A stretch of DNA of 64,000 nucleotides from a virus (Duplodnaviria > Heunggongvirae > Uroviricota > Caudoviricetes > Herelleviridae), in the IMG/VR virus record IMGVR_UViG_3300030514_000001, positions 1 through 64,000 of that record, one strand, 5' to 3'. Numbering within the stretch: position 1 is the first letter of the stretch; every line of letters starts with the position of its first letter. This document shows, piece after piece, positions 52,888 to 61,080 of the stretch. The notes below the pieces were generated by a model, which was given only the letters and a program-made list of their open reading frames with translations, did no database searches and had not been told where the DNA came from. The position numbers were made by a program, and so were the translations under genes.

Positions 52888-53979
52888 ATGACAAAGAAAT
52901 GGCAAGGAACTAGCGTAGGTTTATCTGTAGGTGCAGTAGATGATGGGTTCGGAGATGTAAAATGTGACAACAACGGTCATCCATTCTTAATTCCTTCATT
53001 CGTAACAAACTTTAAAGAGAAACCATCTACAGAGTTTGTAGTAGAAGGTAAGCAGTTAGAATACATCGCTTGTGAAATTGATGGTAAGAAATATGTAGTC
53101 GGAGATTATGCTACAAAGTTAGACCCGGATATTGAATGGACTGGAGGAGAAAATAAACATAATGATAATAAGTTTCCGATTATTATGAAAACTGTTTTAG
53201 GTCTTATGAGCAAGGGTACAAATGAAACCATCTACACACTTATGATGAACTTACCAATTAAGAACGATACACCAGAACGTAGAGAACAACTTACACAACT
53301 TGTAAAAGGTACACATGAGATGAAAATCTCATACGACGGTATCAACTGGATAGAAAGAACAGTCACAGTTGAAGATGTATGTATCAAGAAACAACCGTTC
53401 GGCTCTTTATGTGACCTAATGCTAGACAACAACGGAGAAATCGTTGACCATAACATTGCAAAAGGATTTAACGTATTAGCGGATATTGGAGCAAGAACTT
53501 TGAATGTTCTGACATTGGATTCATTAGAAGAACAACCGGAGCTAACGACTCATACGAACATGGGTATGTTTAGTAGCTACCTACAAATCGGTAAGTACTT
53601 AGAGAATCAACTAGGAGCTACGATTCCAGATGGAAAGTTACCAATGATTATCAAGAATAAAGAAATAAAAGGTATGGACATCACACCAGTCATCAATCAA
53701 GCTTATGAAAATCATGCGAATACCATCCTTAATACACTGGACAGAATACTTATTAATAGCTGGGCTTTTGTAGATACAATCATCTTTACTGGTGGAGGCT
53801 CTGAACTACTCAAACAATACTTATCAGAAAGATTCGCTAACAGAGGAGTTAAGGTGTTGTTCCTAGATAGATACGCAAATGTGCGCGGTTTAAGGAAGTA
53901 CGGGGCACGTATGGCATCGAAAGCGAAGAAGAGTACAGTTACTATTAAAGTCGGCACACAGCCGTATATTAGTAAATGA
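52888..53979 (+). CDS. actin-like ATPase (ParM/StbA/Alp-type)
   Basis: Phosphate-1-like LSVGAVDDGFGDVK, phosphate-2-like ADIGARTLNV, adenosine motif IIFTGGGSELL; 363 aa; RBS AAAGGGGGAAAAC. Confidence 0.6.
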   Translation: MTKKWQGTSVGLSVGAVDDGFGDVKCDNNGHPFLIPSFVTNFKEKPSTEFVVEGKQLEYIACEIDGKKYVVGDYATKLDPDIEWTGGENKHNDNKFPIIMKTVLGLMSKGTNETIYTLMMNLPIKNDTPERREQLTQLVKGTHEMKISYDGINWIERTVTVEDVCIKKQPFGSLCDLMLDNNGEIVDHNIAKGFNVLADIGARTLNVLTLDSLEEQPELTTHTNMGMFSSYLQIGKYLENQLGATIPDGKLPMIIKNKEIKGMDITPVINQAYENHANTILNTLDRILINSWAFVDTIIFTGGGSELLKQYLSERFANRGVKVLFLDRYANVRGLRKYGARMASKAKKSTVTIKVGTQPYISK

Positions 53980-53989
53980 GGTGACTTAA

Positions 53990-54256
53990 ATGCGAAAGTC
54001 AGTCTACCTTCGAGATAAGATGGATGATGACATACTAGAAGTCATTAAGCCATTACTAAAGAACCATAGCTTTGCACATGTAATGAGGGAACTAGCTAGA
54101 GATGGAATCAAGTATAGAAAAGGGGAAGGAGGTGTCGTGTATCCTAAAGTCATACAAAGTGTGACACCTGTAGAATCGGCTCCAATACAAGATGTAAAAT
54201 TAGTCAAAAAAGAAGCATCTGACAAGGATATCGAAAGCAGATTAGATAGTTTCTAA
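53990..54256 (+). CDS. small putative DNA-binding protein (ribbon-helix-helix-like; ParR-like adaptor candidate)
   Basis: N-terminal KSVYLRDKMDDDILEVI beta-strand/helix pattern; 88 aa directly downstream of the actin-like gene. Confidence 0.4.
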   Translation: MRKSVYLRDKMDDDILEVIKPLLKNHSFAHVMRELARDGIKYRKGEGGVVYPKVIQSVTPVESAPIQDVKLVKKEASDKDIESRLDSF

Positions 54257-54261
54257 CAAAA

Positions 54262-54298
54262 CAAAAAGCACATCAGACGACATGCTTCCAAGTTTTAT
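54262..54298. terminator. bidirectional terminator between convergent genes
   Basis: Imperfect palindrome AAGCACAT...ATGTGCTT flanked by T-tracts on both strands; contains the stop codon of the minus-strand HNH gene. Confidence 0.5.
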
Positions 54299-55006
54299 AA
54301 TTTACAATCTGAGATATGTTCTTTCTTACCACATTAAACATATCACCTAATTGTTGATGGGTGTATTGACCTGTACTATGTAATCTTCTGATTTCTCTAA
54401 CTTTATCTTCTGTAAGTTTAGCTGCGTTGGAAGATGTAGGCTGTTTAGAGATAACTGGCTCGTCAACTAAATTAAGATGTTTCCATGTCCTTCCTTTAAT
54501 CACAGCGTCCACCGTACTATCCGTAACATCAAACTGAGCGCTTATTTGTGCTACAGAGAATCTACCTGATTTATACATTTCGACTATCTTATGTACTTTG
54601 TCTTCACTTAACTTACGATTGTGACTCGATTCACCTAAACCCACACTAAGCAACCCGGTATTTACTGCATGTTGTGTGTTTTCCGAAGGTGTGACCCACT
54701 CTAAGTTTGATAGTTCGAAGTTCCGCTTATTACCGTCCTTATGGTTTATGTGCGGCTTATTTAAAGGGTTAGGGATAAAGACGATTGCTAGTAATCTGTG
54801 TAAGAGATAACTTTTAGACACTTTGTTGTGTGTTAGTGTCACTTTAGGATATCTCTTGTCGCTTTAGGATATCTCTTGTCGCTTACGGGGTTTGAAACGC
54901 TAATCATTTTACCTTTACTAATATTCTTAACCTTACCTGTGTTACTTATTTCGTAGTTGTCTCCACATTCAACGACACCCTCTAACGGTTTCCATACTTC
55001 TGTCAT
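54273..55006 (-). pseudogene. free-standing HNH homing endonuclease (NUMOD-like N-terminus + HNH core + HTH), frame-disrupted by a 20-bp tandem duplication
   Basis: Minus strand: ATG at 55006 with GAGGGA RBS encodes MTEVWKPLEGVVECGDNYEISNTGKV...; that frame stops inside the duplicated 20-mer. Removing one copy joins it in-frame to the HNH body (ORF 54273-54842: HKDGNKRNF...NLEWVT). Confidence 0.65.
54842..54881. repeat. perfect 20-bp tandem duplication (CTTTAGGATATCTCTTGTCG x2) inside the HNH endonuclease gene
   Basis: Two identical adjacent 20-mers read directly from the sequence. Confidence 0.9.
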
Positions 55007-55082
55007 AATATTGATTCCCTCTTTCTTATGGTATATCTCTATTATAACATACTTCGAAAATAAATCGGGGGAGGCTACTTTT

Positions 55083-55196
55083 GAAATTCCCTTGCGAGAA
55101 AAACAGAAATGTTCGGGAAAAACAAAACGTTGATTTAACGCTATTTTCCCGATATTAGATAGGGAAAAACGTTAATTCCCTGCGTAATTCCCGCAT
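55083..55196. promoter_or_regulatory. cluster of GGGAAAAAC / AATTCCC direct and inverted repeats in a non-coding region (candidate operator / recognition locus)
   Basis: CGGGAAAAAC (55113), inverted TTTTCCCG (55145), GGGAAAAACGTTAATTCCC partial palindrome (55162), AATTCCCTTGCG / AATTCCCTGCG / AATTCCCGCA repeats; six GGGAA/TTCCC cores in about 110 bp with no ORF. Confidence 0.45.
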
Positions 55197-55216
55197 TTAT
55201 AATAGGGTTATAACGG

Positions 55217-55378
55217 TTAATTCACTATCCCGTAATCATGTAAAACTTTTAAAATCTGCTCTAATTCTTCCATACTAATATCCACGTCTCTATCCTTGTT
55301 GATGTCGTGAAGAACTAAATGATTTACTTTCTGCATTTGTCTCTCATACTGAGCTAAAGAATCTGTGAACCAAGACAT
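55217..55378 (-). CDS. hypothetical small protein (minus strand)
   Basis: 53-aa ORF, one of only two minus-strand coding regions; weak RBS. Confidence 0.3.
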   Translation of the reverse strand: MSWFTDSLAQYERQMQKVNHLVLHDINKDRDVDISMEELEQILKVLHDYGIVN

Positions 55379-55456: not shown

Positions 55457-55648
55457 ATGGGTATCGTAGCTGTAGGTGCTGGAATCGCGTTAGTTTGTAC
55501 AACTGGAATGGCATTATCAACGGTGTTTAAGTTTCTTCATTCATTCGAAATGGAAGTTGGGGTGAAAAAGGAGAAGCGCGGAAGAGGTAGAGATGTTAAT
55601 GAGGAACGTTTTGAGAACATGGCTAATCGTGCAAGATTAAACAAATAA
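55457..55648 (+). CDS. small membrane protein with a basic C-terminal tail
   Basis: ATG after GAAGGAGGAAAAAATT; N-terminal TM GIVAVGAGIALVCTTGMAL, then KKEKRGRGR. Confidence 0.5.
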   Translation: MGIVAVGAGIALVCTTGMALSTVFKFLHSFEMEVGVKKEKRGRGRDVNEERFENMANRARLNK

Positions 55649-55662
55649 AGGAGATGTTAACG

Positions 55663-56190
55663 ATGATTATTAATTACGATGCGAAAAATAAAGCTGCTTG
55701 GGTTGAGTACACTCCATTCACAAAAGCTCCAATGGTAGATGAGTCGGTTTTTATGTACCAAAATATAAAGGAGGAGATAATGAGCGCAAAGGGTATGCAG
55801 AAGCTCAAAAAAATAAAGAAAGCAAAAAAGATAATCAAAATGTCACTATCAATATTAGGAGCAAGCGCGGGTCTTTCGACGAGAGCATTTGCGAGTGGGG
55901 TAACAGGGAAAACACCTCTACTGGCTCCATTCACACCGAGCGTAATGGTGGAGTACGGGTTGCAAGTAGCCTTTCTAGCGGTGGGTGTAGCAGTAGCATT
56001 AAGTATCGTCCTACTAGTCATAGCGGGAGTACTGAGAATGTTCAGAAAGAGCCAAGAAGCGAACGTATGGACGCAAGACATCATCAAAGGGATAACGCAA
56101 GTACTGATAAGCGTTCCAAGCATTTACATCATCTATCGGGTCGCAAGTTACTTATTCAGAAATTTAAACTTCTTAAGTCTAGGCTTCTAA
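55663..56190 (+). CDS. membrane protein with an internal signal-peptide-like segment and TM
   Basis: ATG 9 nt after AAAGGAG; a strong internal RBS (AAGGAGGAG) precedes the ATG at 55780, which would yield a 136-aa protein with a K-rich n-region, h-region, AFA|S and a TM. Confidence 0.45.
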   Translation: MIINYDAKNKAAWVEYTPFTKAPMVDESVFMYQNIKEEIMSAKGMQKLKKIKKAKKIIKMSLSILGASAGLSTRAFASGVTGKTPLLAPFTPSVMVEYGLQVAFLAVGVAVALSIVLLVIAGVLRMFRKSQEANVWTQDIIKGITQVLISVPSIYIIYRVASYLFRNLNFLSLGF

Positions 56191-57293
56191 AGATTGGAGC
56201 GATACCAGCAGCAACTATCTCTACATTCTTCTTTACTTCTATAGGAGATAAAGCATACGCGGAAACGATTAGTAATGATTCATTCTTTGATAAAGGTAAG
56301 AGCATGTTCTCTGGGTTCATCAAAGATACATTAATACCTACAGGAACACCAAACCCTATAAAAGAAGTAATGGATTGGTTCGGGGAGTTCGTCACTCTTA
56401 TTAAAGACTTACCGCACAATGTAGCGAAGATGTCCGCAGAGCTGTTGTCTTGGATATACGACTTATGCGCTGGACTTATCTTAAAGACTCCTCTGTTCTT
56501 ATTCGATAATGAATGGTTTACAACAATGAGTTTAGGATTTAGCGGAGTATCTATAGGGATTGTAGTTGTTCTTACTGTTGTAGAATGCATTAAAAGAATG
56601 TTATCTGGAGCAAATAAGAAGCTAAGACCGATGGAGTTTTCTACAATTATGAAACGCTGGTCACTTATGGCGGGTGTCACATCGGTAACGCCTTTCTTGT
56701 TCAAGTCCGCATTCAAATTATTAAATCTCATCTCTGGCAAACTTACAAGTATGGGTAGCGAAATTATGACAGCTAGTGCCTTGACTATTACATTTAGTAC
56801 GATTGATGTTATCACATTGTTAGTATTCGATGCGATACTGATTTCTACAGTTATTCCGATGTTATGGACGAATGGAAGAAGATTTTTTGACCTATTGGTA
56901 TTAGGCGTAGTAGCTCCTGTCGCATTAGTATGTTGGGTATTTGATTCACATAGGCATTTCTTCAATCAATGGTTCAATAATGTCAAACATCTATCTCTTG
57001 TGCAAGTCTATCACTCTCTATTCCTACTAATTATCGGGTTATTCATCTTCGGTATCCCGTTCCCAGCCGACTTCACAGGTACAATCGTTAAGTTGCTCGT
57101 TGTAATCGGAGGCTTTGCTCGTATGCAGAACCCACCTAAAATCATTGCAAACAAATTAGATAATGGGAAGGGATTAGATGAAGTAATGAAGAGTAATGTA
57201 AAAGAGACATCTAAAAAGTTAATTAAGAACTTTGCAATGTCAAAAGCTACAATTTTAAGTCCGTTAGCGTTATTTAAGAAAATTAAAAAATAA
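56067..57293 (+). CDS. polytopic integral membrane protein (>=7 TM)
   Basis: 408 aa; K/R-rich segment then hydrophobic core ending AYA (signal-peptide-like), then about 7 TM helices; overlaps the upstream gene by 124 nt in another frame, so the start is uncertain. Confidence 0.5.
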   Translation: MDARHHQRDNASTDKRSKHLHHLSGRKLLIQKFKLLKSRLLKIGAIPAATISTFFFTSIGDKAYAETISNDSFFDKGKSMFSGFIKDTLIPTGTPNPIKEVMDWFGEFVTLIKDLPHNVAKMSAELLSWIYDLCAGLILKTPLFLFDNEWFTTMSLGFSGVSIGIVVVLTVVECIKRMLSGANKKLRPMEFSTIMKRWSLMAGVTSVTPFLFKSAFKLLNLISGKLTSMGSEIMTASALTITFSTIDVITLLVFDAILISTVIPMLWTNGRRFFDLLVLGVVAPVALVCWVFDSHRHFFNQWFNNVKHLSLVQVYHSLFLLIIGLFIFGIPFPADFTGTIVKLLVVIGGFARMQNPPKIIANKLDNGKGLDEVMKSNVKETSKKLIKNFAMSKATILSPLALFKKIKK

Positions 57294-57305
57294 GGAGAGG
57301 TTCTT

Positions 57306-57419
57306 ATGAGTATCACAACACTGATTTTACTGAATACAACGATGTTATTGGCGACTGCTGCTGTGAATGCTGTGCAATGTGTAATCATTATGAAGGAGTT
57401 GAAGCATCGTGAAGAGTAA
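57306..57419 (+). CDS. small hydrophobic peptide
   Basis: 37 aa, RBS TAAGGAGAGG; not in the track. Confidence 0.3.
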   Translation: MSITTLILLNTTMLLATAAVNAVQCVIIMKELKHREE

Positions 57420-59664
57420 AGGATACAAGAACATATCGAACTACTTCTCGCAGATTGAGGATGTATCAGGAGCCTTTAAAACCATCTTAGAACAAGAGAC
57501 AGACGGTGTATTCGGTATAGAGCTGGAGATGTATAAAGGAGGGCGTAATATTACAGTGGTTACGCCCCCACATATCCGTTTTAATGAAACGAACGTTCTA
57601 CCTTATCGTTTAACGTTAGTAGCGCGTCATACAGACGACTTACATGCTTATGAAGGTTATCTATCTAAACCCTCGTTCTTACCGTTGTACGAGGGCATGA
57701 GAGGCTTATTATTACGTGAATTACTGGAGATACAAGTAGGAGAGGATGAAGCACTAGAAATCCAGTGGCTATTCAAGAGATATGTAGATAATTGGCTCCT
57801 AACTTCTATAGAAAGGTATAAGAGTTACTTGAGTGGGAATGAATACCCTGCTGGTTCTAAAATAGGAAGAACATTTCAAGATAAAATCCTTCACGCTATC
57901 AATAAGTTATCATCATTTGATATGGCTCGAACATATAGTGAGAAAGTGGAACAGAAGATTGTTGGTAAAGTGTATAAATTCAAACTAGGAATCACCATTC
58001 GTTCTAAGGAACCTACGGCGCTCGTACAGCAGATTGAAACTATACTACGTAAATACGATTCGCATAATACGGTAAGCTTGTACAAGAGGAAGTTAAAGGG
58101 CTTAAAAGATGAATGTGAGGAAAGACTAGTTATGAACGGGGAGAATGTACTGAGTGATACAGAGATTGTATCCTTATTCGGTGGAACAGTAGTAGCTCCC
58201 CAAGAAGTTGAACACGCTCAATCTGTTACTACTGCACCGAATAAAGTTAGAACACCTAGAAAGGATATCGGAGGTCTAGTCTCGTTGTTGCCTACATATC
58301 CAAGAGAAGAAGTGAAAGTGGATGAAAATATTGTGAGCTACCTAGCCGAAGCCATGAAGCGTGTAGGTCTGATTCCAACAGCGAGACTAGCGAATAGTAC
58401 TGTCACAGCGGGTGCGCGGTTGACTGTTATTCAATGTGATATACCTAAGAAGAAGAACTTAAGTCATCTTATTTCAAAGGCTTCCGATATCCAAGCAGCA
58501 CTAGGAGTCCCTTCTCTTAGTATAGAACAAGGTGAGGAACCTGATACTGCCAAATTTACCCTACCAAACGAAGAAGCAGCCGTTATCAGCCTTAGAGAGC
58601 TTATAGAGAGTCCAGACTTCCAAGAGTACGCGAGTAATCATGCGTTACCATTTATAGTAGGTGTTGATGAAGTAGATACACCAATCTATCTAGACTTGAC
58701 AAAGCTCGTACATCTTATGATTGCAGGTACAACGGGTTCTGGTAAATCTGTATTTATGAATACACTAATCATTTGTCTCATGGCTACGAACTCACCAGAG
58801 ATGTTACGGTTTGTCATGATTGACCCTAAAATAGTAGAACTGGCTCAATACGAAGGGATGGCGCACGTAGATAAGATTGTAACGGATATGGAGAAAGCAG
58901 GGGAAGCACTCAATAAGCTAGTAGAAGAAATGGAGAAGCGATATGAAACGTTTAAGGATGCAGGAGTTAAAAATATAAAGGTCTACAATGAAGTAGCAGA
59001 CTGTAAAATGCCTTATATCGTATGTGTGATTGATGAATACGCAGACCTACATGATACAAACCCACATGTAGAAGAGTATGTCACACGACTAGGACAGAAA
59101 GCCCGTGCTGCTGGAATCCATTTAGTTATCGCTACACAAAGACCGGATGCAAAGGTAATCAGTGGACGTATCAAAGCAAATGTGCAGAATGCAATCAGTT
59201 TCAATTTAAACAGTAATGTAGATTATAAAACAGTATTCGGTAAAGGTATAGGAAATACGACTCTGCTGGGTCGTGGAGATGGTGTCATGAGAATAGTAGC
59301 TCACCCTAAAGAGTTCCAGAGATTCCAGAGCGCTATTGTATCTCCTAATGAAGTGGAAGAAGGTAAAGTGTATCAAAAGATTAGGGATTACTTTGGTGGA
59401 GAGTTAGTCGAAGAGGAGATAGAAGAAACAGAAGAAGTTGATACAGAGGAACCGTTAGTGAAGCTTAAAAAGATTATCGCTCGTACTAGGGAGACGAAGG
59501 TAGGTAGGCTTAGAGAACTCATGGGAATCAAAGCAGAAGTATTAACAGACCTCATGGGTAAGTTAGTGGAAGAAGGTTGGCTCATCAAACACGCTTCTAA
59601 GACAAAAGGATATGAGCTAATCATTCCAGAAGAGATGTTAAACGAATATAAAGGTGATTGGTAA
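57409..59664 (+). CDS. FtsK/SpoIIIE-family DNA translocase-like ATPase (soluble N-domain + motor + gamma-like wHTH)
   Basis: Walker A MIAGTTGSGKS, Walker B VCVIDEYADL, RAAGIHLVIATQRPD motif, C-terminal ETKVGRLRELMGIKAEVLTDLMGKLVEEGWL winged-helix; no TM in the 751 aa. Confidence 0.8.
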   Translation: MKSKGYKNISNYFSQIEDVSGAFKTILEQETDGVFGIELEMYKGGRNITVVTPPHIRFNETNVLPYRLTLVARHTDDLHAYEGYLSKPSFLPLYEGMRGLLLRELLEIQVGEDEALEIQWLFKRYVDNWLLTSIERYKSYLSGNEYPAGSKIGRTFQDKILHAINKLSSFDMARTYSEKVEQKIVGKVYKFKLGITIRSKEPTALVQQIETILRKYDSHNTVSLYKRKLKGLKDECEERLVMNGENVLSDTEIVSLFGGTVVAPQEVEHAQSVTTAPNKVRTPRKDIGGLVSLLPTYPREEVKVDENIVSYLAEAMKRVGLIPTARLANSTVTAGARLTVIQCDIPKKKNLSHLISKASDIQAALGVPSLSIEQGEEPDTAKFTLPNEEAAVISLRELIESPDFQEYASNHALPFIVGVDEVDTPIYLDLTKLVHLMIAGTTGSGKSVFMNTLIICLMATNSPEMLRFVMIDPKIVELAQYEGMAHVDKIVTDMEKAGEALNKLVEEMEKRYETFKDAGVKNIKVYNEVADCKMPYIVCVIDEYADLHDTNPHVEEYVTRLGQKARAAGIHLVIATQRPDAKVISGRIKANVQNAISFNLNSNVDYKTVFGKGIGNTTLLGRGDGVMRIVAHPKEFQRFQSAIVSPNEVEEGKVYQKIRDYFGGELVEEEIEETEEVDTEEPLVKLKKIIARTRETKVGRLRELMGIKAEVLTDLMGKLVEEGWLIKHASKTKGYELIIPEEMLNEYKGDW

Positions 59665-59682: not shown

Positions 59683-59711
59683 TTGACTAATAGTAAAGTG
59701 GGTAGTAAGAT
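59683..59711 (+). promoter_or_regulatory. sigma-A-type promoter (TTGACT-17-TAAGAT), AGTTGTTGACT family
   Basis: Directly after the FtsK-like gene, preceded by an A-rich UP-like tract. Confidence 0.6.
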
Positions 59712-59743
59712 AAGTGTATAAGATAAACAAGGAGATGAAGAAA

Positions 59744-60145
59744 ATGAAACGAGAATGGGTTAGAGGTTTTACGCATCAATTTAAGAACTTATTTGAAGAG
59801 GATGGCGTTGTTATTTACGAGGAGGATGTTTGTGAAAAGATGCAGGATATGTTTGATACACTACCTGTTAGGTACAAAATGGATATTGTGCGAGTCGAGA
59901 TATTTGATTGTGATTCATATTTCTTCCAACTAGTAGGTAACAATAATAAAGAAGAATTTTTAACATTAGCGGAACATGTAGAGTATTTACTTAAATACAA
60001 TATCTCAATTGTCAAGAGTTACGATGAGTATAATAACATTTGTAATTTTTTAGGTAGACTAGGAGTTAAACACAGTAGAGAAGTCGAAACCAATTTCGCT
60101 AAAGAGCGTATCTGGGTTATCGGAATAGACAGGGAGTGGAAATAG
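59744..60145 (+). CDS. hypothetical protein
   Basis: ATG after AAGGAGATGAAGAAA; follows a promoter. Confidence 0.5.
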   Translation: MKREWVRGFTHQFKNLFEEDGVVIYEEDVCEKMQDMFDTLPVRYKMDIVRVEIFDCDSYFFQLVGNNNKEEFLTLAEHVEYLLKYNISIVKSYDEYNNICNFLGRLGVKHSREVETNFAKERIWVIGIDREWK

Positions 60146-60391
60146 GTGTCGGTATCATCTTTATTGTACACAAATTATAGTAGTAACCCATACGCAAGGG
60201 AAATAGCAGAATGCAGGTGGTGGATTGAAAATCCTGACGCTAGGAAAAAGAGATTACAAGAAATATATAGTAAAGATTATTTTTGCCCTCATTGTAGAAA
60301 ATCTTTAGCGTGGCATAGTGACCATATGCGATTTATCTGGTTTGAGTGTATAACTGTTGATTGTAGCGGAGAACAAAAAGTATGGTTATAA
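60146..60391 (+). CDS. small zinc-finger protein
   Basis: CPHCRKS...CITVDC; GTG start. Confidence 0.45.
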   Translation: MSVSSLLYTNYSSNPYAREIAECRWWIENPDARKKRLQEIYSKDYFCPHCRKSLAWHSDHMRFIWFECITVDCSGEQKVWL

Positions 60392-60404
60392 GGAGAGGAT
60401 TAAT

Positions 60405-60587
60405 ATGAAAGTTAAAAAGAAATCAGGTAAACCGTTTAAATCAGGGAACAAGGTGAATACAGTTATAGGTATTATCCACCATCCAGAGGTTAAAGGGGAG
60501 AAAGCATACATCTTTAAAGAGGATGCTTCTTATGTGAGTGTAACAATGTGTGAAGAGGTGAAGGAGGGTGAAACAATTGAAGAATAG
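60405..60587 (+). CDS. hypothetical small protein
   Basis: ATG after TAAGGAGAGGAT. Confidence 0.5.
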   Translation: MKVKKKSGKPFKSGNKVNTVIGIIHHPEVKGEKAYIFKEDASYVSVTMCEEVKEGETIEE

Positions 60588-61080
60588 AAAACCGGCTATC
60601 ATCGGATTGGCTGTTGTGTGTCTGTTCACAGGATATCATACGTTTTTTGGGAAAGCGAAGACGGTTACAAATGTAGCTAGTCTTCCGTACACTGAGACAG
60701 ATAGACGAGCGAACCAGTATCAGATTGATGAGTTGAAGTACGAGAAGAATAAAGCGGACTTTATTGAAATTTTAGATTATTTAGTATCATTCGAAAATAT
60801 GGGTTACTTTAATATGAAGTGGGATATCCCAGATAAGTATACTGTAACTGTCTCTTTAGATATTGACAATGCAGCTAGAGTTCACGATGCTACTGCTGTA
60901 CAGGTTTATGATATCGTGAGAGCGAATAAGGATAGCTTCGGGTATTATTTACAAGCTTTTAATAATACATTCCATAATGGGAAAGCTAAAGAAGGCGACT
61001 TAACTCTCATCATAACAAATAAACAGGGTAAAGAGATTGCTCGTACACAGAAGTTATTAGAATCGAGCGCTCACCAGTAA
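60577..61080 (+). CDS. membrane-anchored protein (N-terminal TM)
   Basis: TTG 9 nt after AAGGAGG; N-terminal hydrophobic anchor AIIGLAVVCLFTGY. Confidence 0.5.
   Translation: MKNRKPAIIGLAVVCLFTGYHTFFGKAKTVTNVASLPYTETDRRANQYQIDELKYEKNKADFIEILDYLVSFENMGYFNMKWDIPDKYTVTVSLDIDNAARVHDATAVQVYDIVRANKDSFGYYLQAFNNTFHNGKAKEGDLTLIITNKQGKEIARTQKLLESSAHQ

Follow-up and report, generated by a model that had tools for sequence, protein, structure and literature searches.

The window analyzed here is a stretch of 64,000 nucleotides (nt) of viral DNA (positions 1 to 64,000 of IMG/VR record IMGVR_UViG_3300030514_000001). In the region studied, it shares about 97% DNA identity with the Bacillus phages B4 and B5S and 95% with Spock and Flapjack. 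The latter two and the more distant phage Atlee are all filed as Bequatrovirus (Bastillevirinae, Herelleviridae), and on sequence identity the window is assigned to Bequatrovirus. Our subject is a block of five closely packed genes on the plus strand at positions 55457-59664, here called g1 to g5 and together the module, for which an initial annotation made from the sequence alone had suggested a role in moving DNA across a membrane. All five open reading frames (ORFs) lie where that annotation had placed them. At least 80% of the 4.3-kb block is present in 44 phage records, and all five proteins match PHROG families, four of which are of unknown function.

Gene g1 (55457..55648) encodes 63 amino acids (aa) and matches Pfam DUF7394 (9e-13) and phrog_3796 (3.5e-29). 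It is followed by g2 (55654/55663..56190; 175-178 aa; phrog_3528, 2.4e-80), g3 (56067..57293; up to 408 aa, counted from the first ATG; phrog_3750), g4 (57306..57419; a hydrophobic protein of 37 aa; phrog_4802, 6e-22), and g5 (57409..59664; 751 aa; Pfam FtsK_SpoIIIE, 8e-50; phrog_3551). Gaps of 5-14 nt and 12 nt separate g1 from g2 and g3 from g4, respectively, while g4 and g5 overlap by 11 nt and g2 and g3 by 124 nt if g3 begins at the ATG at 56067. Good ribosome-binding sites precede g1, g2, and g4, and no terminator-like site was found within the five-gene block. The operon had been described as lacking an early-promoter consensus of its own, and no sigma-70-like site is present just upstream of g1; a promoter-like sequence (TTGACT-17-TAAGAT) lies 3' of g5 at 59683-59711. 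The neighbors of the g5 ATPase are membrane proteins, three small and one polytopic, as had been predicted for them.

The motor motifs quoted for g5 in the initial annotation are genuine, with GTTGSGKS at aa 440, VCVIDEYADL at aa 538, and IHLVIATQRPD at aa 570. They fall in an FtsK-type alpha/beta motor spanning aa ~300-650 (58306..59358, plus strand; Walker A at 58726-58749, Walker B at 59020-59049, and ATQRP at 59116-59148), and the catalytic motifs are invariant across 54 g5 homologs, which were collected with the full-length protein as the query. Residues 346-650 match the FtsK proteins of E. coli and P. aeruginosa in the PDB at an E-value of 8e-56, against 1e-20 to 1e-33 for the type VII EssC/EccC proteins. 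The NCBIfam models rank in the same way, with FtsK (9.5e-61) ahead of EssC (2e-33), plasmid TraB (1.7e-14), and VirB4. On g5, the last three models all stay below their cutoffs: EssC reaches 115 of the 778 bits required, plasmid_TraB 53.2 of 800 bits over the motor core only, and VirB4_CagE 20.6 of 643 bits (E 1e-4) over the P-loop only. Among PHROG families, the FtsK-like family scores 1336 bits, and a terminase family reaches E 7.6e-12 over aa 434-609 only. The PHROG, PDB, and NCBIfam scores thus place the ATPase in the FtsK clade and not among terminases or in another family. A terminase or packaging ATPase is ruled out for g5 by the relative PHROG scores, and no terminase Pfam match was obtained; a type VII EssC protein is ruled out by the single ATPase domain, the lack of a transmembrane (TM) segment and of an FHA domain, and the low score.

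The claim that the N-terminal domain of g5 has no TM segment also stands and extends to the whole protein, in which the maximum 19-residue Kyte-Doolittle mean is 1.44. An FtsK_4TM-type anchor (PF13491) was found in none of the phage g5 homologs and is present in two bacterial FtsK matches (P0163 and P0164). One GenBank record labels the g5 gene sftA. The PADLOC models SspH (7e-57), mad8 (3e-26), and also HerA match the g5 motor (aa 384-628), and the SspH and mad8 matches indicate that related FtsK-type motors have also been built into anti-phage defense proteins; no PADLOC match was obtained for any partner protein of g5.

Behind the motor and an acidic linker lies a C-terminal winged helix (aa ~683-751; 59455..59661, plus strand), at the position of the FtsK gamma domain and of the winged helix-turn-helix (wHTH) domain of TraB. 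These roughly 70 residues are strongly conserved and contain an invariant LVEEGWL..K...KGY. In profile searches against the PDB, the region retrieved only wHTH domains of the DtxR/FadR/MarR type at E 0.002-0.2, and one distant homolog carries a faint precomputed MarR match. The region is collinear with the bacterial FtsK gamma domain (hhalign probability 65% over 68 columns), but a Pfam scan of g5 at E<=10 returned no match to the FtsK gamma family (PF09397). The wHTH that had been called gamma-type is therefore present at the gamma position, while its membership in the gamma family is weakly supported.

The N-terminal domain of g5 (aa 1-260; 57409..58188, plus strand) is a soluble alpha/beta domain that presumably serves for docking. 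Sequence-profile searches of this domain against Pfam, NCBIfam, and the PDB returned nothing, and a single-sequence scan of GTDB representative genomes found no relative. An AlphaFold2 model of aa 1-345 built from 54 homologs had a pLDDT (predicted local distance difference test) score of 85; in it, residues 1-260 form the alpha/beta domain and residues 262-286 a disordered linker. In Foldseek searches with the modeled domain, eight of the nine top matches were entries of the R388 type IV secretion system (T4SS), four of them titled TrwK/VirB4, with probabilities of up to 0.93; the E-values were 0.016 or higher and are not significant by themselves. The model suggests that the domain adopts the fold of the VirB4 N-terminal domain, with remote similarity. 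The titles of the R388 PDB entries place the VirB4 N-terminal domain in an inner-membrane complex with VirB3, VirB6, and VirB8, and together with the predicted fold this would fit docking of the g5 N-terminal domain on the co-encoded membrane proteins.

Gene g3 encodes the polytopic member of the block. At least seven TM helices had been claimed for it, and about seven to eight hydrophobic segments are seen, of which the N-terminal one is signal-like; the structure model of g3 is of moderate confidence. A word search found 77 homologs at 34% identity or more, all of them phage-like and one carrying PF19597 (TrbL_4). A profile built from 54 homologs was then run against 1.84 billion representative proteins and gave 156 matches. 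Of 34 distant ones, seven fell in the Pfam family TrbL_4 and two in TrbL/VirB6, each with a best E of 3e-8, and a single one fell in TrbL_5. One distant match (P0299) lies in a classical Gram-positive-type conjugation locus (L012), which carries TrbL, PrgI, TraC-like, and VirB4-type genes. By these family matches, g3 is classified as a divergent polytopic inner-membrane subunit of the TrbL/VirB6 family. A GenBank record of 2024 (Atlee) already labels g3 "conjugal transfer protein TrbL," without comment. The suspicion of a conjugation-type partner for the motor has thus been borne out both by the TrbL/VirB6 likeness of g3 and by the VirB4-like fold predicted for the g5 N-terminal domain.

The 408-aa length given to g3 holds for one of its possible forms only, as the start is ambiguous. 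The signal-like segment (..IPxAxxST....AYA|xT, aa 40-66 of the long ORF) is conserved across genera and is located 5' of the start codon that some records use, and an in-frame ATG or GTG occurs at the same position inside g2 in eight of the eight loci checked. The conserved segment and the conserved start inside g2 make the long form, which overlaps g2, the likely one. A reduced pairing of a g3-like gene with an ATPase occurs on a 5.9-kb metagenomic contig (L011, 1292-3637), where a distant g3-like ORF of 303 aa overlaps the next gene, a 390-aa FtsK-only ATPase that has weak Pox_A32-type matches and carries neither the N-terminal domain nor the wHTH. It could represent the pairing in a minimal or ancestral state, or it could belong to the packaging module of a membrane-containing virus.

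The three remaining proteins are small. The g1 protein is bitopic, with a Gly-rich N-terminal TM segment (aa 1-27) and a basic tail, as had been described; its gene has a strong ribosome-binding site (GAAGGAGG), and g1 (DUF7394) is found in every copy of the module, including L008, L010, and L015. In g2, the signal-like segment noted earlier is real, but two hydrophobic helices and not a single TM segment follow it, and the second ATG (55663) is probably the true start. An alignment of g2 from seven lineages shows a weakly conserved N terminus, a Lys-rich n-region, a hydrophobic core, a conserved AxA site resembling a cleavage site, a first TM helix, a basic loop (RMxRK..EA..W..D[IV][IL]KG), and a second TM helix. 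A long leader followed by a two-helix hairpin is the layout of VirB2/TrbC-type pilins. The best Pfam match among seven g2 homologs was to TrbC/VirB2 pilin (E 0.0028, in one of them); the window copy gave T4SS_pilin at E 2, and a g2 profile run against the PDB returned noise only. The layout is suggestive of a protein that is VirB2/TrbC pilin-like in topology. The g4 protein has one TM segment, is 37-45 aa long, and abuts or overlaps the start of the ATPase in all full-module loci, a position that recalls, by analogy only, that of virB3 before virB4.

To the left of the module lies a partition locus. The first gene (52888..53979, plus strand) encodes a ParM/Alp7A-like partition ATPase of the actin family (363 aa; MreB-like_C 2.9e-23, ALP_N 2.3e-17, Alp7A_like_C 3.4e-7; phrog_691 "partition protein," 3.4e-115), and an actin-like gene occupies the same left-hand position in Atlee, Spock, Bastille, Bc431v3, Goe3, and Moonbeam. 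It is followed by a gene for an 88-aa putative ParR-like adaptor (53990..54256, plus strand; phrog_3536, 1.4e-36), a role we infer for a protein that is conserved in its N-terminal part and ends in an acidic tail. This adaptor directly follows the actin-like gene in all ParM-linked loci. The order partition ATPase-adaptor-g1-g2-g3-g4-g5 held in Bequatrovirus, Bastillevirus, Caeruleovirus, Grisebachstrassevirus, and Moonbeamvirus. In Goe3, Moonbeam, L008, L010, and L015, an M23 peptidase gene (Pfam 5e-27 and 9e-27 where scanned) stands between the partition genes and g1.

Full-length g5 homologs were found in 160 phage records and in 85 protein clusters from large phage-like contigs, and the order g1-g2-g3-g4-g5 is kept, with its translational overlaps, down to 35% identity. 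In the most distant of these copies (35% identity; L008/L009 and L010), ParM gives way to a TubZ-like gene of the tubulin family, which is preceded by a small gene of its own (in L008/L010 unrelated to the 88-aa adaptor), and the module is unchanged; the TubZ/PhuZ-like genes lie at 5246-6385 in L008 and 3615-4733 in L010, both metagenomic contigs. A still more distant contig (L013) carries an actin-like gene, an adaptor, g2-like and g3-like genes, a 45-aa ORF, and a g5-like N-terminal domain. A genome scan with the g3 alignment also identified two Bacillaceae assemblies, Metabacillus arenae and Bacillus sp. EB600. The former (L015; NZ_JACXAI010000002.1, 224250-241245, on a 309-kb contig) encodes the whole extended module, with an actin-like protein, an adaptor, M23, a Cro-like helix-turn-helix (HTH) protein, DUF7394, g2, g3, g4, and an FtsK-like protein, followed by phage-type RecD2-like and helicase genes. 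The latter (L016, a 53-kb contig) encodes a g3 relative amid ORFs that match the module in size and order, the last being 767 aa long, and also has an HTH gene and a partition gene of the actin type. These two loci may represent resident large phages, carrier-state genomes, or phage-plasmids.

The proposal that the block is an accessory cassette does not survive this comparison, as it is syntenic across at least six Bastillevirinae genera, more distant metagenomic contigs, and two bacterial assemblies. Judged by this synteny, the module is a conserved, vertically maintained feature of the phage lineage and not a sporadic island. Its linkage to partition genes survives even the non-orthologous replacement of ParM by TubZ, which is strong evidence for functional coupling of the module with partition.

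Between the partition genes and the module, the initial annotation had also pointed to a repeat-rich locus. It is real and takes the form of a short iteron cluster at about 55060-55216, made up of TAATTCCC, CGGGAAAAAC, and inverted copies, and is a candidate cis-acting site that could be centromere-like or clt-like. Clustered short repeats occur between the adaptor and the module in every lineage, with eight copies of TAATTACCC in Bc431v3 and, in Moonbeam, copies of CGTAGTCC at a spacing of 16 nt; positions elsewhere include L002:2725-2817, L004:3559-3721, L005:3092-3237, L006:2235-2274, and L010:4979-5184. The best 8-mer in the window is present in 4 copies, a marginal count that was reached by 8 of 200 shuffles, while in five of eight loci none of 200 shuffles reached the observed count. 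The motif TA[AT]TT[ATC]CC is densest at the adaptor-module intergenic position in seven loci, and it recurs in both ParM-linked Bc431v3 and TubZ-linked L010. The iteron type (TAATT[C/A]CC, CGTAAT..CC) is common to loci with unrelated adaptors, ribbon-helix-helix-like and 88 aa long in some and TubR-like in others. Since the motif is shared despite unrelated adaptors, a protein common to all loci may bind the iterons. These are hints, and we offer it as a hypothesis only that the conserved wHTH of g5, and not the partition adaptor, would read the iterons in the way that TraB acts at clt.

A comparison of the module with known DNA translocation systems shows parts of more than one of them. Like FtsK, SpoIIIE, and SftA, g5 has an FtsK alpha/beta motor, from which a linker leads to a winged helix at the C-terminal gamma position, and it is soluble like SftA. 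It differs from FtsK/SpoIIIE in lacking the 4-TM anchor, in having a VirB4 N-terminal-domain-like region of 260 aa in place of the membrane- or septum-targeting region, and in being phage-encoded with T4SS-like partners. Streptomyces TraB is a single FtsK-like motor that works without a relaxase, its wHTH reads the 8-bp direct repeats of clt, it is accompanied by Spd helper proteins, and it carries out transfer across septal cross-walls. The module resembles it in its single FtsK-like motor, its C-terminal wHTH, its nearby cluster of 8-10-bp iterons, and its small membrane proteins, but g5 scores low against plasmid_TraB and comes from a ParM/TubZ-linked module of a Bacillota phage; we know of no VirB4 N-terminal-domain-like region or VirB6-like partner in TraB systems. 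The conjugative T4SS of Gram-positive bacteria include TcpA/TcpH/TcpF/TcpG of pCW3 and ConQ/ConE/ConG/ConD/CwlT of ICEBs1. Shared with these are an FtsK-like ATPase, a VirB6-like polytopic protein, small membrane proteins, and, in many relatives, a peptidoglycan hydrolase. In contrast, no separate VirB4 ATPase, VirB8-like protein, or relaxase/oriT was seen with the module, the carrier is a virulent myovirus, and the single ATPase fuses a VirB4-type N-terminal domain, an FtsK motor, and a wHTH.

The likeness to R388 (TrwM/VirB3-TrwK/VirB4-TrwI/VirB6; PDB 7o3v, 7o42, 8rtb, and 8rtd) comes with a sequence identity of only 8-9%. The FtsK motor takes the place of the VirB4 C-terminal ATPase, and the outer-membrane core, VirB5, VirB8, VirB10, and VirD4 have no counterparts in the module. 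The crenarchaeal Ced system (CedA, CedA1/A2, and CedB) moves dsDNA across a single membrane, importing chromosomal DNA in archaea, by means of a polytopic protein, small TM proteins, and a VirB4/HerA-type ATPase. The module matches it as a parts list, in which a single polytopic protein and a single ATPase of the FtsK-HerA/VirB4 superfamily are joined by very small TM proteins, two or three in number, and differs from it in ATPase type and domain architecture. The module is therefore not a canonical T4SS, as g5 does not score as a VirB4 ATPase and neither a relaxase nor VirB8 was seen; nor is it a canonical FtsK/SpoIIIE system, given the missing TM anchor and the weakly supported gamma domain, and its scores set it apart from TraB and EssC. 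Its components come from both the T4SS and the FtsK/TraB systems, and it would work like both.

The gene content, homologies, fold similarities, and conserved linkage described above lead us to infer, with moderate confidence, that the five genes encode one membrane-anchored complex for translocating the double-stranded DNA (dsDNA) of the phage genome, a hybrid of a T4SS inner-membrane platform and an FtsK/TraB-type motor. In such a complex, the VirB6/TrbL-like g3 protein would form the polytopic channel or platform, and the pilin-like g2 protein, g1, and g4 would be small accessory membrane subunits. The g5 protein would dock through its VirB4 N-terminal-domain-like region and supply a hexameric FtsK alpha/beta motor, with its wHTH picking or orienting the substrate DNA, for which the iterons that closely precede the module are a plausible contact. 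Phage DNA would be carried to the pole or septum by the partition system (ParM or TubZ with its adaptor), the M23 peptidoglycan hydrolase would join in many relatives, and the phage genome would be pumped out of the infected cytoplasm across the septal membrane into the forespore, giving a virospore, or into a neighboring cell of the chain.

As FtsK, SpoIIIE, and TraB all push dsDNA away from the cytoplasm that holds the motor, the direction of related motors, together with the coupling to partition and the frequent presence of a wall hydrolase, favors export across a septum. Our confidence in any one destination is nevertheless lower than in a membrane-translocation complex as such. More tentatively still, the module may be a minimal, relaxase-free conjugation-like machine, aimed by ParM or TubZ and the iterons, that spreads the phage genome without virions through forespore or chain septa; we consider this possible and by no means probable. 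Genomes of lytic Bacillus phages do enter forespores and so give virospores (PMC12991052), and a published table of the non-regulatory sporulation genes of phages includes spoIIIE (PMC10294663).

Several results weigh against a translocation complex of this kind. A sigma-70 scan and an alignment of the upstream regions revealed no conserved promoter recognizable for the module, and the M23 peptidase of the relatives is absent from the 64-kb window. A polar motif resembling the FtsK orienting polar sequences (KOPS) or SpoIIIE recognition sequences (SRS) was not found, the 8-mer search of the window yielding only coding-strand purine bias and ribosome-binding-site words. A VirB4-type ATPase, a VirB8-like protein, and a relaxase were not seen, so a complete T4SS is not present. 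With regard to the relaxase, none is annotated within 6-20 kb in seven relatives, no whole-genome scan with MOB profiles having been made. Full-text literature searches found no experiment on any gene of the module. Finally, the FtsK pham (pham 473) is present in 21 of 26 Bastille-like phages and missing from the other 5 (PMC4528723), so that lytic growth can do without the module.

The same genes can be read without any crossing of a membrane. The g5 protein could act as an SftA/FtsK-like motor that, with ParM or TubZ, clears or segregates phage or host DNA at septa, the membrane proteins merely tethering it. The relationship of the motor to chromosomal FtsK, which is its nearest relative, would agree with this, as would the constant partition linkage, the sftA label of one GenBank record, and the lack of a TM anchor in g5, which is likewise a feature of the SftA architecture. 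A tether, however, leaves unexplained the VirB6/TrbL-type polytopic protein, the secreted pilin-like protein with its predicted cleavable leader, and the M23 neighbor of many relatives, all of which are envelope-spanning or extracytoplasmic, and we think it unlikely that the module serves only intracellular DNA handling. A role in import would reverse the direction of transport, bringing in what remains of the phage genome once a first step of transfer is over, in the manner of T5, or exogenous or host DNA as Ced does. Genome entry would not explain the linkage to partition genes and iterons, the myovirus tail already provides an entry channel, and the absence of the module from some Bastille-like phages (PMC4528723) fits an essential entry step poorly. 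We regard import as improbable, even though the parts of the module (small TM peptides alongside a polytopic protein and an ATPase of the FtsK-HerA superfamily) resemble those of Ced and the module lies in a long run of small plus-strand genes typical of early or host-takeover regions.

Export of protein by a T7SS- or T4SS-like (type VII or type IV) apparatus, or superinfection control that excludes or expels foreign DNA, is in our judgment quite improbable. The g5 protein has one ATPase domain where a type VII ATPase has three, lacks an FHA domain and TM segments, and scores far higher against FtsK than against EssC; moreover, its wHTH is of a DNA-binding type, no WXG100-like substrate gene was noticed, and the partner proteins had no PADLOC match. 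That the module derives from membrane-associated packaging of the PRD1/Bam35 type, retained or borrowed by myoviruses or by a satellite element, is very improbable. The L011 pair, with its FtsK-only ATPase and weak Pox_A32-type matches, could be cited in its favor, as could the PHROG terminase family that matches the g5 motor at 7.6e-12, but published Bastillevirinae genomes such as Grass encode a conventional terminase and portal (PMC3853049), the motor belongs to the FtsK clade and is not A32/P9-like, and the VirB4 N-terminal-domain-like region, the wHTH, and the partition linkage have no tectivirus counterpart.

The description of the module as undescribed requires some qualification. We know of no precedent for a phage DNA conduit built from conjugation parts, and full-text searches found neither such a precedent nor any paper tying these phages to T4SS components. 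The FtsK/SpoIIIE gene itself, in contrast, has been reported since 2013-2015 (PMC3601020, PMC3853049, PMC4528723), as a curiosity tied to sporulation to which no role was assigned; genome papers have remarked on the FtsK/SpoIIIE homolog and ParM since 2013, among them that of Bc431v3 (PMC3601020), and the membrane partners are not discussed in PMC3601020, PMC4528723, or PMC10294663. Should the module prove to be a translocation complex, it would be a phage-encoded DNA conduit made from conjugation parts and would blur the line between viruses and conjugative elements. It would also provide a testable mechanism for the virospore carrier state of lytic Bacillus phages, which has so far been explained by host SpoIIIE, Spo0J/parS hitch-hiking, and Spo0A boxes (PMC12991052). 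The combination of a VirB4 N-terminal domain, an FtsK motor, and a wHTH would constitute a new domain architecture, with a bearing on the exchange of modules within the FtsK-HerA superfamily. As Bastille-like phages have been proposed for biocontrol of the B. cereus group, the hiding of genomes in spores or the movement of DNA from cell to cell would bear on safety and efficacy, a concern that had already been raised on the basis of the SpoIIIE homolog alone (PMC4528723).

Several neighboring genes vary among the relatives. A conserved 53-aa ORF (55217..55378, minus strand) is transcribed divergently from g1 and is annotated in the same place in Spock, Atlee, Flapjack, Bastille, and Bc431v3; it has no Pfam-type, NCBIfam, or PADLOC match. 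Just downstream of g5, a conserved 226-aa gene in Atlee (gp225; L001 11471-12151), Spock (gp217), Flapjack, Bastille, and Bc431v3 is labeled "peptidase M23" or "alpha-actinin-binding" in GenBank. The "peptidase M23" label is wrong for the Atlee gene, which encodes a coiled-coil protein with no M23 domain. Different small genes (59714-60587) replace this coiled-coil gene in the window, and no homologs of it or of the Cro-like HTH protein were found in the 64 kb. Further downstream, 60568-61080 encodes a 170-aa bitopic protein with an N-terminal TM segment and an extracytoplasmic domain of about 140 aa; relatives keep this protein, likewise encoded about 1 kb beyond the module. A VirB8-like subunit could have such a size and topology; a phmmer search against PDB sequences returned nothing for the protein.

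In some relatives, the partition genes and module are preceded, at a distance of 2-7 kb, by phage-encoded sigma-factor genes, with a SigF-like gene in Flapjack (gp203; L007 12375-13271) and three in Bc431v3 (L004 1-1757, orf107-109), two of which are related to host SigF/B and SigG (PMC3601020). Phage sigma genes near the module would fit expression linked to the forespore.

The inverted HNH island noted beside the operon in the initial annotation is present on the minus strand at 54273..55006, between the adaptor gene and the iterons, as two ORFs (54273-54842 and 54839-55006) of an HNH/NUMOD-type homing endonuclease (Pfam HNH_3, 1.4e-8; phrog_59, 1.1e-40). It is a lineage-specific insertion, absent from this site in Spock and Flapjack, and stands outside the system. 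A near-exact 20-nt tandem duplication at 54837-54876 (TGTCACTTTAGGATATCTCT / TGTCGCTTTAGGATATCTCT) marks the junction of the two ORFs and shifts the frame, so that the endonuclease gene appears to be split and may be a pseudogene. In the Bequatrovirus relatives Atlee, JarJar, Anthos, Phrodo, Taffo16, Riley, and AvesoBmore, an HNH gene is annotated under the sequence match, which is split in two, and in Atlee (L001 7904-8629) it lies on the opposite strand between g3 and g4, breaking the operon. The module thus seems to be a recurrent homing target.

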